Below are positions 59,789 to 64,000 of a stretch of DNA of 64,000 nucleotides, piece by piece (position 1 is the first letter of the stretch; each line of letters begins with the position of its first letter). The position numbers and the translations under genes were made by a program. The stretch lies in the NCBI RefSeq assembly GCF_054482525.1, contig NZ_CM137006.1, one strand, 5' to 3'. The notes under the pieces are model-generated. The model was not told the DNA's origin, made no database searches, and saw only the letters and a program-made list of their open reading frames with translations.

Positions 59789-60940
59789 ATGAGGGGGATT
59801 TTGATGACTGCTTTCACCCAAAAATTGACAGCCGCGATACCCACCATGCTGTTATGCGTATCATTAAGTGGAGTCACAAATATGAGTTACGCTGATACAA
59901 CCAATCCGAACGCGCCCGTTTCGCAGGTCGAGAAATGGGATAAAACTTTTGCTGAGAGCACGAAAGTTGATCACCGTAAGGTGACCTTTCCGAACCGGTA
60001 CGGGATCACCTTAGTCGGGGATCTCTATATACCGAAGGATCGTGGCGATCGCAAGCTGGCAGCAATTGCTGTTAGTGGCCCCTTCGGGGCGGTGAAAGAG
60101 CAATCCAGCGGCCTGTATGCGCAGACGCTGGCTGAACGGGGGTTTGTCACTCTGGCTTTTGACCCTTCATACACGGGTGAAAGCGGTGGCTACCCGCGAA
60201 ACGTCGCATCTCCGGATATCAACACCGAGGATTTCAGCGCGGCGGTTGATTTCTTAGGCCTGCAAAAAGAGGTGGATCGCAACCGTATCGGGTTGCTCGG
60301 CATCTGCGGATGGGGTGGCATGGCCTTAAACGACGCCGCGATGGACACACGTGTCAAGGCGGTGGCGAGCAGCGTGATGTATGACATGAGCCGTGCAATG
60401 GGGCATGGCGTGGGCGATGGCAAAGACCGCTATACCACTGCCGATCGTCGTGCCGTATTGCAGTATTTGAACATGCAGCGCTGGAAGGATGCTGAAAATG
60501 GCGCTTTCGCGCCAGGCGGGCATGATATTTACGTTGATGAGAAGGGCAACGTCACCGCTTCCGATCGTATTTTACCGGAAACTTTGCCAGCGAATTCTAA
60601 TCCGGTATTGAAAGAGTTCTTTGATTATTACCGCATGCCGCGTGGTTTCCATGCGCGTTCGGTCAACTCAACCAGTGCCTGGAATGCAACCATGCCTCTG
60701 TCATTTATGAATATGCCGCTGCTGAGTTACGCTAATGAAGTTACTATCCCTACACTCATCGTGACCGGTGAAAAAGCCCATTCACGCTATTTTGCTGAAG
60801 ATGCCTTTAAGGCAATCGGCAGCAAAGAGAAAGAGTTAGTGATTGTCCCCGAGGCAAACCATGTTGATCTGTACGACAACGTTGCGGGTAAGATCCCATT
60901 TGCCAAATTTGAGCAATTTTTCAAGGCAAACTTAAGATAA
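59789..60940 (+). CDS. Secreted alpha/beta-hydrolase-fold protein (dienelactone-hydrolase-like, putative Cys nucleophile)
   Basis: 383-aa (alternative ATG at 59804); signal peptide; nucleophile-elbow-like GICGWGG. Confidence 0.65.
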   Translation: MRGILMTAFTQKLTAAIPTMLLCVSLSGVTNMSYADTTNPNAPVSQVEKWDKTFAESTKVDHRKVTFPNRYGITLVGDLYIPKDRGDRKLAAIAVSGPFGAVKEQSSGLYAQTLAERGFVTLAFDPSYTGESGGYPRNVASPDINTEDFSAAVDFLGLQKEVDRNRIGLLGICGWGGMALNDAAMDTRVKAVASSVMYDMSRAMGHGVGDGKDRYTTADRRAVLQYLNMQRWKDAENGAFAPGGHDIYVDEKGNVTASDRILPETLPANSNPVLKEFFDYYRMPRGFHARSVNSTSAWNATMPLSFMNMPLLSYANEVTIPTLIVTGEKAHSRYFAEDAFKAIGSKEKELVIVPEANHVDLYDNVAGKIPFAKFEQFFKANLR

Positions 60941-60956
60941 CCCGAAAGGTTTACCA

Positions 60957-60986
60957 GGCCACCTGTCGTAAACGGGTGGCTTTTAA
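60957..60986 (+). terminator. Rho-independent terminator after the hydrolase gene
   Basis: Hairpin gccacc-tgtcgtaaacg-ggtggc followed by tttt. Confidence 0.55.
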
Positions 60987-61117
60987 CTGCCTGGTGTGAT
61001 GCAGAATATGCCGCATCGCCCTATATTCTCACCCAACTATTATGTCGTTATTCCCTGAATAACTTCTGACCCGATTGCGCTTGAATCTGGCTGGTTCGAT
61101 ATTAAGGGGGGCTAATA

Positions 61118-62311
61118 ATGTCCACTGTAAGTCTCAAACAATTATACGGAAAAACGCATGCATACTGGAGCGGCGTATTCGCCATGACGCTTTGCGTGTT
61201 TGTGCTGATCGCTTCTGAGTTTATGCCAGTCAGCCTGCTTACGCTCATTGCCCATGATTTGCACGTTACCGAAGGGCTGGCAGGGCAAGGAATTGCTGTC
61301 TCTGGTGCGCTGGCGGTGCTTACCAGTCTGACTATCTCCCGTATTGTCGGAGACCTGAATCGAAAATATCTTTTGCTGGGACTGACGGTCTTAATGGCCA
61401 TATCGGGAATAATTATCACTATAGCACCTGACTATCCGGTTTATATGCTGGGGAGGGCTCTGATTGGTGTTGTCATTGGAGGGTTCTGGTCAATGTCGGC
61501 TGCAACCGCCATTCGGCTCGTGCCGCAGCACCAGGTTTCCCGCGCACTGGCAATTTTTAACGGCGGAAACGCACTGGCCACCGTTGTGGCAGCGCCACTT
61601 GGTAGCTATCTGGGGACAACCATCGGCTGGCGTGGGGCCTTTTTATGTCTGGTCCCCCTTGCGATAGCTGCGTTCATCTGGCAATGGGTCAGTCTGCCTC
61701 CGATGGAAAGTGATAAAACACAAAAGCCACAGAGATCTGTGCTTCGCCTGTTCAGCGTTGCCATCGTACCAACGGGACTGCTGGCCTGCGGACTCTTCTT
61801 TATGGGACAGTTTGCTTTATTTACCTACGTGCGCCTCTTTCTGGAGAGCGTCACCAGAGTGGGACCTTCTGATCTTTCTCTGATTTTGCTCGCAATAGGT
61901 GTAGCAGGCTTTGTCGGCACAATGATCGTCTCAACATTCCTGAACACCATATTTTATAAGACCTTAATAATGATCCCGTTGCTTATGGCAGCGATTACCG
62001 GTGCGTTACTGCTGGTCGGACACCATATCTGGGCTGTTGCCGTTTTACTCAGCCTGTGGGGGCTACTTGCGACAGCTGCGCCAACGGGGTGGTGGACATG
62101 GATAGCACGCGCGTTACCCGAAGATGCAGAGACGGGGGGAGGCCTCATGGTTGCAGTGATTCAGTTATCTATTGCACTTGGTTCAACGGCTGGAGGTCTG
62201 GTATTCGACAGTCTGGGATGGAGAAGTGCTTTTGGTTTAAGTGGTTTGTTACTTCTGGGAGCGGTAGCGATGACATGTGCCACATCCCGTCAAAACAGGA
62301 AGGCGCAGTAG
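61118..62311 (+). CDS. MFS-family transporter (12 TMS)
   Basis: 397-aa highly hydrophobic ORF with MFS-like loop motifs. Confidence 0.8.
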   Translation: MSTVSLKQLYGKTHAYWSGVFAMTLCVFVLIASEFMPVSLLTLIAHDLHVTEGLAGQGIAVSGALAVLTSLTISRIVGDLNRKYLLLGLTVLMAISGIIITIAPDYPVYMLGRALIGVVIGGFWSMSAATAIRLVPQHQVSRALAIFNGGNALATVVAAPLGSYLGTTIGWRGAFLCLVPLAIAAFIWQWVSLPPMESDKTQKPQRSVLRLFSVAIVPTGLLACGLFFMGQFALFTYVRLFLESVTRVGPSDLSLILLAIGVAGFVGTMIVSTFLNTIFYKTLIMIPLLMAAITGALLLVGHHIWAVAVLLSLWGLLATAAPTGWWTWIARALPEDAETGGGLMVAVIQLSIALGSTAGGLVFDSLGWRSAFGLSGLLLLGAVAMTCATSRQNRKAQ

Positions 62312-62836
62312 CGCAATCCTTTTATTTCTGGCGTACGCTCTTTAAGGCATCCGGCTGAGAGGCTAATGATCACTCCTCGCTCACAACGGACCTTCAGCTC
62401 AGCCGCTCCGGCCGCTTCATGCCATGAATGTACGCAGCCAGTCAGAATATTAAGGTGCGGATTTCAGTTCACTTGCCAGCCCAGTGATACAGGACAGTAA
62501 TGACCAACAATTTGGTATTGATACAACAAGTTGCGGCCCCGGTTCGTGGGGGAGATGAAACGAAGGTAGCTGAAGTTACTGAAATGAAGAATTCAGAGAG
62601 ACTGAATGATATGCCTCACCTTTAGTGAATAGTGTAAAAACGGGAGACTCTCACCCGAGATTATCCACTCATGCTCAATGTATAACTTTCGTGCCCCTCA
62701 CAGGTAAGAGCCGGATACATTCGTTGTGTATGCTGCAGAATTGGTAACCGGGGCCCTGCAGTCTTTAACTCCATGTCTTGTGCTGCTCATTTGCCACAAA
62801 ATCCTGGTACGTCTGCTCAATCATTTCATTCAGCAG

Positions 62837-62852
62837 TTTTTTTGGGGGGGGG
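62837..62852 (+). repeat. T7-G9 homopolymeric tract in an ORF-poor remnant
   Basis: tttttttggggggggg in the sequence; the minus-strand frame across it is open for ~83 codons but has no start codon. Confidence 0.6.
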
Positions 62853-64000
62853 CTCCACGACTTCGGGCAATACTTTCAGGCTGTTTGTGGATTTTTCCGG
62901 ACAGTTTCAGCGGGACGGAACCATCAGCACGTTCATCACGCCTTTTTTGTTGCTCCCTGGCACTTTTCAGTTCATCCACAATATAGCTGCTCTTCTCGCA
63001 TTTTTGCCGATTTTAAAAATGCGAACAAAACATCCGTACATGATGTACAGATTAAACTGCCAGGGACTGGTGTCAGAAAACCTCCGGTTAGCCTGCTCTT
63101 TCCGGAATGTGCCGGTTATGAAAAACCGGAAATTCAGTCTCTGTTGTAAGATGTACCCTCTGATACTACGTTTTCGTTTTCTCTGTGTATTTAACTCACT
63201 GTATTTATTGTCTTTTTAAGCCTGACTGATATTCTCCGGTCATAGTGTGCCTGATAGACATCCCGTAACCTTCTCATTTTTATATAAAAATACCTGCACT
63301 GTCTTCAGCGCATCTGTCTCCTTTAAGTAAAAAATGTTTTCACGTATTGCTGTAAATTCATTTTAAATCAGTATGTTATCCTGATATTGCTGTCTCCTGG
63401 TTTGATGCGTAATCGTTCTGCCTTTCTGGATGATTCTGGTGCTTCCGGGTGCATTCTCCTCTGCACATGCAACAGTTCGTCATCGCCACGTGCCCAAAAG
63501 CATATAAAAACGAATCGAATCTGATCGTTTTTTCAATCGTTTTTCACAGGAATTTCGTAGGGTGTTCTCCGCTATAGCCTCCATATTTGCTGTCTTTTTC
63601 TTCATAAATCGTATGCAATATAACCAGTCTGTCAAGACATCTTCCCTGCTGTTGAGGTGACGATCTCATTTCTGGTCTTTTCCGGGAGAGAGACGGTCAG
63701 ATGAGCGAGCCGGATTTACTGCCAGAGGTACTCCCCGCGGCAGAAAATAGTGCTCCTGTTTCCGCAATCCGGGATCGGCAACGTCCCATGGTTAATGCCA
63801 CTTGCAGCGTCAGGCACTGCAGGTTTACGTCGTGATCTGATTTCTTCTGCACTTATCCCGATCACGGAAGTTCCCCCTGCGCAGACATCGGTTCCTGCCG
63901 ACATCTCACAATACCGCCAGGCAGTCATGCAGTAACACCCGCAATGCGGTCTGCGGTTTTAAGCGCACTCTCCTGTATTCAGTGCACCGATAATGCATCA

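Follow-up and report, generated by a model that had tools for sequence, protein, structure and literature searches.

Tail of a deleted, frameshifted orphan gene with a strain-variable G-run and its orphaned upstream region in an Escherichia coli genomic island

The window, the whole stretch of 64,000 nucleotides analyzed here, ends in a segment (62312-64000) that follows an MFS gene and is identical (100%) to sequence in the E. coli GN03551 chromosome and in two other complete genomes. With this segment as the query, homologous sequence was found in 2,180 of 5,426 complete E. coli genomes. The sole RefSeq/PGAP feature across the equivalent stretch of GN03551 is one pseudogene, and a Pfam search of ten long stop-to-stop frames returned no family and nothing meaningful; the initial annotation had called the segment ORF-poor, which these results bear out. 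A repeat search of the segment found short repeats at chance level only. The features of the segment are as follows.

62312-62376: spacer after the MFS gene of a LysR / alpha-beta-hydrolase / MFS cargo module; the backbone boundary lies at 62377.
62377-62764, minus strand: non-coding 3' flank of the parent gene and shared backbone, assigned by homology, with no Pfam match in its frames.
62765-62979, minus strand: pseudogene stub made up of the C-terminal 71 codons (a helix and a predicted RHH-like domain), frameshifted at the G-run (PGAP, GN03551).
62837-62852: T7G9 homopolymer pair, whose probable source is Pro-Pro-Lys-Lys codons of the loop that joins two predicted RHH helices.
62972-63001, minus strand: relic native start and deletion junction (BLAST against UM146).
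63002-63352, minus strand: putative AT-rich leader of the lost gene, 39% GC, not alignable in the L015 lineage.
63052-63032 and 63312-63295, minus strand: terminator-like hairpins within the leader.
63323-63305, minus strand: leader motif of a Shine-Dalgarno sequence (AAGGAG, 63323-63318), an ATG (63313-63311), one codon and a stop (TGA, 63307-63305).
63353-63652, minus strand: most conserved non-coding block, the only part of the upstream gap alignable in the L015 lineage (74% identity).
63635-63608, minus strand: sigma-70-like promoter found by scan, with a -35 element TTGACA (63635-63630), a 16-nt spacer and a -10 element TACGAT (63613-63608).
63653-64000: spacer of 54% GC with many indels and lower conservation; an istB fragment follows farther on, beyond the window.

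The stub corresponds to the PGAP pseudogene at L001 9454-9668 of GN03551, where its label is 'hypothetical protein; frameshifted; incomplete; missing N-terminus'. At the homologous place in UM146 and CFT073 the gene is intact and encodes 390 aa (WP_000263646.1 and WP_000263647.1, respectively), and further intact members of the family have 372-384 aa. The C-terminal end of WP_000263646.1 reads ..LLDELKSAREQQ..GVLPKKLLNEMIEQAYQDFVANEQHKTLS before its stop codon, and the terminus shared by UM146 and CFT073, ..LLDELKSAREQQKRRDERADGSVPLKLSGKIHKQLESIARSRGVLPKKLLNEMIEQAYQDFVANEQHKTLS and a stop, matches the stub. Judging from these alignments, the minus-strand frame across the G-run represents the C-terminal 71 codons of an orphan protein of ~390 aa. 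BLAST against UM146 paired window positions 62377-62976 with L002 4001-4603 and positions 62987-63823 with L002 5552-6394, so that L002 4604-5551 is missing from the window. The missing piece comprises ~940 bp, roughly codons 11-320, and is out of frame; its junction lies inside 62976-62987. The native ATG (63001-62999) is still present and opens a 9-codon out-of-frame ORF, MREEQLYCG, which ends at a TGA (62974-62972); the intact UM146 protein begins MWEEQVRC where the window has MREEQ. A single out-of-frame internal deletion of ~940 bp thus killed the gene and stranded its native ATG in another frame. Nissle 1917 has the identical junction, and a junction-spanning query was covered to at least 80% in 328 genomes and matched in part in 1,917. 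Since the junction is the same in Nissle and in these 328 genomes, the deletion arose a single time and then spread along with the island.

The suspicion of a decayed gene is supported by the pseudogene label that identical RefSeq sequences carry and by the intact 390-aa parent in UM146 and CFT073. The pseudogene status is therefore already known from the annotation of identical genomes, and the finding as originally stated contains nothing new. The locus resembles ordinary PGAP pseudogene remnants in that an intact homolog exists elsewhere and the copy found here has lost ~80% of its coding sequence to the internal deletion and is frameshifted. There is no essential difference from them; the extra feature is that the frameshift falls within a homopolymer of strain-variable length.

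The frame itself differs from its first description. With nine G residues in the run, the upstream minus-strand frame (stop-to-stop 62833-63012, 60 codons) reads across the run as ..KIHKQPESIARSRGAPPQKNC and then stops, ending ..SRGAPPQKNC at a TGA (62830-62832) that falls 7 codons after the start of the run in the stub. The continuation, KKLLNEMIEQTYQDFVANEQHKTWS and a stop, lies in a different frame from the upstream part at this run length, and the translation of the G9 stub is VDELKSAREQQKRRDERADGSVPLKLSGKIHKQPESIARSRGAPPQKNC, again followed by a stop. The initial annotation had reported an open minus-strand frame of ~83 codons; this frame is absent, because the G9 frame stops right after the run. 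The peptide given for it (..GAPPPKKLL..) needs G10 and is found in sister strains, not in the window. The same frame had been described as lacking a start codon. This holds in that the native ATG is out of frame; it does not hold in that a GTG (62979-62977) heads a 49-codon ORF.

The parent protein has few relatives. Scans of Pfam, NCBIfam and PHROG assigned the 390-aa parent to no family, and a search of 5.8 billion proteins returned only 22 clusters, in which all those with a named source were E. coli. A peptide-pattern search of species-representative genomes revealed no relative, which makes a cross-species alignment impossible. The AlphaFold model of the full-length parent was unusable (pLDDT 37.7). 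An AF2 model of its last 73 aa reached a pLDDT of 74.7 and consists of helix, coil, helix and helix; the last three elements (coil 23-30, helix 31-44 and helix 48-72) have pLDDT values of ~84-86. The layout of the modeled C-terminus agrees with a beta-alpha-alpha topology in which a turn that contains Gly joins the two helices. RHH (CopG/Arc/MetJ-type) DNA-binding domains include the N-termini of type II antitoxins and the C-terminus of MatP. In a Foldseek search against the PDB, the top matches were nearly all RHH proteins (MatP, MazE-mt9, YiiF, VapB, CopA, CopG, TacA, AmrZ and Arc), with rmsd values of 0.4-1.7 Å (about 1 Å) and E values all above 0.1. Profile searches gave no significant RHH match: Pfam CopG_antitoxin was hit in two of six family members at E=0.042, below threshold, and the PHROG HicB-like profile matched the parent at E=0.41. 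By hhalign the parent C-terminus aligned with CopG in register with a probability of 7%. As in RHH proteins, the last ~45 residues of the parent are predicted to form a strand or coil, a helix, a Gly-containing turn and a helix; unlike in them, the domain is C-terminal in a 390-aa orphan and its sequence support is sub-threshold. From the model we infer that the parent may be a DNA-binding protein with a C-terminal RHH domain, in which case the G-run would lie in the loop between the two predicted RHH helices. The parent is otherwise without a recognizable domain.

The stub also carries substitutions. A Leu-to-Pro change in the HKQLESIARSRG helix occurs in both deletion alleles, while Leu is found in every full-length homolog that includes the region, and the G9 product lacks the second helix as well. 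Read from the alignment, the stubs of the window and of Nissle differ by eight substitutions; five of these are synonymous, against a neutral expectation of ~25%. Gene conversion from intact copies in paralogous islands can explain such an excess. The Leu-to-Pro change in an otherwise invariant helix, together with the out-of-frame Nissle allele, would point to relaxed constraint; the synonymous excess points the other way.

The surroundings of the stub are those of a genomic island. The backbone runs in the order AlpA, a 200-aa protein, an unannotated gap of 1.6-2.2 kb, the parent gene, a YeeP-like GTPase and Ag43, and the same order is seen around intact homologs. According to the PGAP annotation of the identical strain, this is a backbone of the CP4 type: the island has the same set of genes as CP4-44 and CP4-57, namely AlpA, YeeP/YfjP GTPase, Ag43, DUF932, antirestriction, RadC/JAB, YeeT, DUF987 and CbeA/CbtA. 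A tyrosine integrase adjoins tRNA-Phe outside the window. The K-12 island CP4-44 contains no homolog of the segment or of the 390-aa gene; in contrast to CP4-44, the segment is a variable backbone piece that ~38% of complete E. coli genomes possess. Exactly at 62377 the sequence becomes homologous to UM146 and Nissle, and many matches begin at query position 62-66. At this boundary UM146, CFT073 and Nissle carry a TonB-dependent receptor and ABC transporter cargo; in the window, the LysR/hydrolase/MFS module separates the stub from the GTPase as an insertion. The 3' flank (62377-62764) is 91% identical to L002 4001-4393 of UM146 and 98.6% identical to Nissle, and it was covered to at least 80% in ~1,170 genomes, where the only annotation is the gene end. 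The initial annotation had also considered a remnant of another element. Such a remnant exists only just beyond the window, as an IS21-family istB fragment (~64155-64316, projected from GN03551), and none lies within the segment. In GN03551 this fragment is annotated as 'AAA family ATPase, incomplete' at L001 10844-11005, and IS21 transposase fragments adjoin in UM146 and CFT073; the istB fragment is part of the ancestral backbone. A literature search on the CFT073 cobU island yielded nothing useful. Taken together, 62312-64000 holds the remaining tail of an orphan gene that underwent deletion and frameshift, plus the orphaned upstream region of that gene, in an E. coli genomic island. It is very probable that the segment represents decayed CP4-type island backbone, that the deletion killed the gene, and that slippage in the G-run is neutral.

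The T7G9 run is present as first described, with T7 at 62837-62843 and G9 at 62844-62852 (C9A7 on the coding strand). G/C runs in the 64-kb window fall off from 183 of length 4 through 33 of length 5 to eight of length 6, with none of length 7 or 8 and one of length 9, so that no G/C run other than G9 exceeds 6. A simple composition model predicts 0.2-0.3 G/C runs of at least 9 per window. The initial annotation called a nine-base G run unusual for this type of genome; this is correct against the observed fall-off in run length, with its empty classes at 7 and 8, and less so against composition, and the run alone is not statistically remarkable. G/C tracts are scarce in Escherichia, with a tract (A+T)/(G+C) ratio of 11.6 (PMC8928963).

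Comparison of alleles suggests how the run arose. The intact genes of UM146 and CFT073 have T7-GGGAGGA-CACC at this position, encoding GVLPKK, and other intact family members encode GVPPKK; by alignment, the run occupies the place of Pro-Pro-Lys-Lys or Leu-Pro-Lys-Lys codons in the intact genes. The Nissle-type stub carries T7G6, which is out of frame, and its span was a constant 108 nt among the matches listed. It is the commoner of the two stub types. The window-type stub carries T7Gn-CTCC, and in 14 window-type genomes the span of the corresponding 111-nt query was 111 nt (n=4), 112 nt (n=8) or 113 nt (n=2). Read directly, the run is G9 in GN03551 (and the window), G10 in TUM14759 and G11 in ST70. 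The G9 genomes also include GN03139, 3908 and AH50, those with G10 also 746 and MS14384, and those with G11 also VTB96959v. These alleles are otherwise 99.8-100% identical, so the suspected proneness to slipped-strand mutation agrees with what is seen between assemblies. G10, the only in-frame length, is also the commonest in window-type genomes (8/14). In the PGAP annotation G9 and G11 bear a frameshift flag and G10 does not; all of these alleles, G10 included, are treated as pseudogenes. The run may have expanded from Pro-Pro-Lys-Lys codons after the death of the gene, and replication slippage at nine or more bases would then have let its length drift neutrally.

Constancy at G6 among the matches listed and variability at G9 and above fit replication slippage that depends on tract length; they also fit assembly error that depends on tract length. 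Long-read assemblies often miscount homopolymers of at least 8 bases. It is conceivable, although doubtful, that the tract is stable and that the G9/G10/G11 differences are errors of this known kind, as would suit alleles that differ by almost nothing else. Against this, each length recurs across strain names, hosts and sources (four genomes with G9, eight with G10 and two with G11), and no scatter is seen at G6 among the matches listed. Assembly error would leave the pseudogene verdict unchanged.

Upstream of the stub, the kilobase at 62980-64000 was found in ~2,090 of 5,426 complete genomes (~38%) at 86-100% identity, and it is almost never annotated there. It had no match in phages and three in plasmids, one of them in a record labeled Klebsiella pneumoniae; no exact 22-mer of its conserved core occurs in species-representative genomes. 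Across five lineages, column identity was 0.88-0.98 in most 50-column bins of 63089-63735, with 0.82 at 63489-63535. It was 0.66-0.72 in 62999-63088 and 0.28-0.9 in 63653-64000, and it falls in the indel-rich stretch 63736-64000. Indels of 43 bp, 19 bp and 2 bp between lineages break every ORF in 63653-64000. The promoter-like site at 63635-63608, ~610 nt upstream of the native ATG, was the only one found in a promoter scan of 62200-64000, and both of its hexamers are invariant in seven of seven sequences. The gene of the divergent L015 lineage encodes a protein with 70% identity. A search for more divergent lineages of the conserved block returned two in all, the main family and the rare L015 type. 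A small ORF in the conserved block (63353-63652) was considered and rejected: substitutions showed no codon periodicity (11/10/11 over the three positions), no ORF is shared, and indels in T-runs put the frame out of register from one lineage to the next.

We infer that 62980-64000 comprises the orphaned promoter of the lost gene and its long AT-rich leader, which may have been kept because the island backbone to which they belong is widely shared and recombines. Alternatively, the region could encode a functional small RNA or cis-regulatory leader that is transcribed on the minus strand from 63635-63608 and is independent of the dead gene. We regard this as unlikely. It would account for the survival of the 300-nt block 63353-63652 as the sole upstream part kept in L015 (74% identity), for the invariant hexamers (7/7), for the terminator-like hairpins downstream of the promoter, and for the presence of an almost never annotated region in so many genomes (~2,090/5,426). 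A conserved promoter is, however, equally expected for the mRNA of the parent gene, and the region is absent from species-representative genomes and phages. A non-coding RNA had also been among the first suggestions, and beyond the conserved promoter-like block neither Rfam nor folding backs it. The covariance-model search, run as an Rfam 15 scan of 60900-64000 at E ≤ 1, gave no match inside 62312-64000; its single match, to NsiR4 at 60923-60982, scored 20 bits where the gathering score is 40 and falls on the terminator of the hydrolase gene, outside the segment. Folding of the ~125-nt transcript predicted to start from the conserved promoter is no more stable than that of shuffled sequences (z = +1.24), and two lineages are too few for a covariation test or a covariance model. 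The strongest sliding-window fold (62952-63071, minus strand, z = -5.2) spans the deletion junction and therefore is not an ancestral structure. Orphaned promoter and leader is thus the reading of the upstream kilobase that we retain.

The run also raises the question of phase variation. In homopolymeric-tract contingency loci, slipped-strand mispairing causes the phase variation of surface genes in Neisseria, Haemophilus and Campylobacter. The locus shares with them a G/C run of at least 9 in frame, single-base length differences and one length that is in frame. It holds a homopolymer of at least ~8 nt inside a reading frame (G9, 62844-62852, in the stub frame), and tract length varies between close strains (14 alleles), where assembly error is possible. 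It differs from them in that no length restores a complete functional product: the ON state, G10, yields a C-terminal fragment, 71 of the 390 codons, that lacks the native start and carries the Leu-to-Pro change in the invariant helix. It differs further in that the sister G6 allele is out of frame and has one length among the matches listed, that the variation is known from a comparison of assemblies, and that G/C tracts are rare in Escherichia (PMC8928963). For the phase-variable gene proposed in the initial annotation, these observations do not support functional phase variation; they support a decayed gene.

A phase-variable mini-gene is a narrower form of the same idea, in which a 71-aa RHH protein starting at GTG 62979 would be ON at G10 and OFF at G9 and G11, possibly translated when ribosomes re-initiate behind the 9-codon leader ORF, which retains the native ATG and promoter. 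The GTG does exist behind the native promoter, the stop of the native-ATG mini-ORF lies 3-5 nt downstream of it, and the stub retains the whole RHH-like domain. The prevalence of G10 (8/14 genomes) and the bias of the stub substitutions toward synonymous changes relative to Nissle would also suit such a gene. It is nevertheless very improbable: the far commoner Nissle-type allele, with G6, is out of frame and shows one length among the matches listed, a Pro replaces the otherwise invariant Leu in the middle of the first helix, no good Shine-Dalgarno sequence precedes the GTG at normal spacing, every allele is a pseudogene for PGAP, and the window, with G9, is OFF. That the deletion allele is a miniaturized 71-aa RHH regulator switched by the G-run, possibly acting on the upstream block and the GTPase/Ag43 module, is likewise very improbable; if true, it would give the island a stochastic switch.

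In sum, the stub of a gene killed by deletion matters little for the window, and the simplest view of its G-run is that of a hotspot where slippage is neutral. The G9/G10/G11 tract could act as a fast-evolving marker for this lineage or as a check on the homopolymer accuracy of assemblies. The upstream kilobase, almost never annotated and with an invariant promoter-like site, is a mildly useful by-product of the analysis. The parent, an uncharacterized orphan gene confined to E. coli whose product has a C-terminus predicted from the model to be RHH-like, is of similar use; considering its position between AlpA and the YeeP-GTPase/Ag43 module, it is a candidate regulator of the island.

The region upstream of the lost gene carries a promoter-like site about 610 nt 5' of that gene's ATG and, nearer to the gene, a short motif with the layout of a translation start followed by a stop.

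Features of the region upstream of the lost gene
63608-63635, minus strand: promoter-like TTGACA-N16-TACGAT, invariant, inside the conserved block 63353-63652
63305-63323, minus strand: AAGGAG, 4-nt spacer, ATG, one codon, TGA, overlapping a terminator-like hairpin (63312-63295)

The block that holds the promoter-like site is the sole upstream part kept in L015, the divergent lineage in which the gene is only 70% identical; the site itself is annotated in none of the genomes inspected. The AAGGAG of the second motif is a strong Shine-Dalgarno sequence. Members of the main family conserve the whole motif, L015 does not, and either a minimal leader ORF or chance may account for it.

The most stable predicted fold of the segment lies at 62952-63071 on the minus strand (-43.5 kcal/mol, z = -5.2), wherein sequence of the stub, the C-terminal remnant of the lost gene, is predicted to pair with the old leader (62954-62966 with 63054-63066). 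This fold exists only because the deletion joined the stub and the old leader. An Rfam match to NsiR4 was also obtained at 60923-60982, where it coincides with the stem-loop terminator 3' of the alpha/beta-hydrolase gene; it reaches 20 bits where the gathering score is 40 (E=0.26), and this weak match almost certainly reflects a terminator hairpin that resembles the family by chance.

Two further features belong to the island that carries the stub.

Features of the island backbone and its boundary
62376-62491: piece of about 115 nt at the cargo/backbone boundary, found standalone in some genomes
about 64155-64316 (projected from 10844-11005 of L001, the locus of strain GN03551), just past the window end: fragment of about 160 nt from the C-terminal part of an IstB ATPase (IS21 family)

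The IstB fragment is fixed in the island backbone and was found also in loci where gene callers leave it unmarked; its neighbours in UM146 and CFT073 are a complete IS100 and fragments of IS21 transposase. An isolated copy of the boundary piece occurs, for example, in EH031 (96.6% identity), and a 39-nt piece adjoins an adhesin gene in EC476. These occurrences suggest that 62377 is a recurrent recombination or cargo-exchange junction.

The surroundings of the island were read from the window at 49204-49279 and onward and from the GN03551 record at 756280-765475 and 941954-943489 (L016, L017, and L018, loci of that record). One end of the island is adjoined by tRNA-Ile, and its integrase lies at the opposite end, beside tRNA-Phe. 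In the same record, a second GTPase-to-DUF4942 module, in reverse orientation, adjoins kps/gsp genes. Compared with the K-12 gene order, this arrangement implies an inversion of about 150 kb, which would have occurred via recombination between two inverted CP4-like modules.
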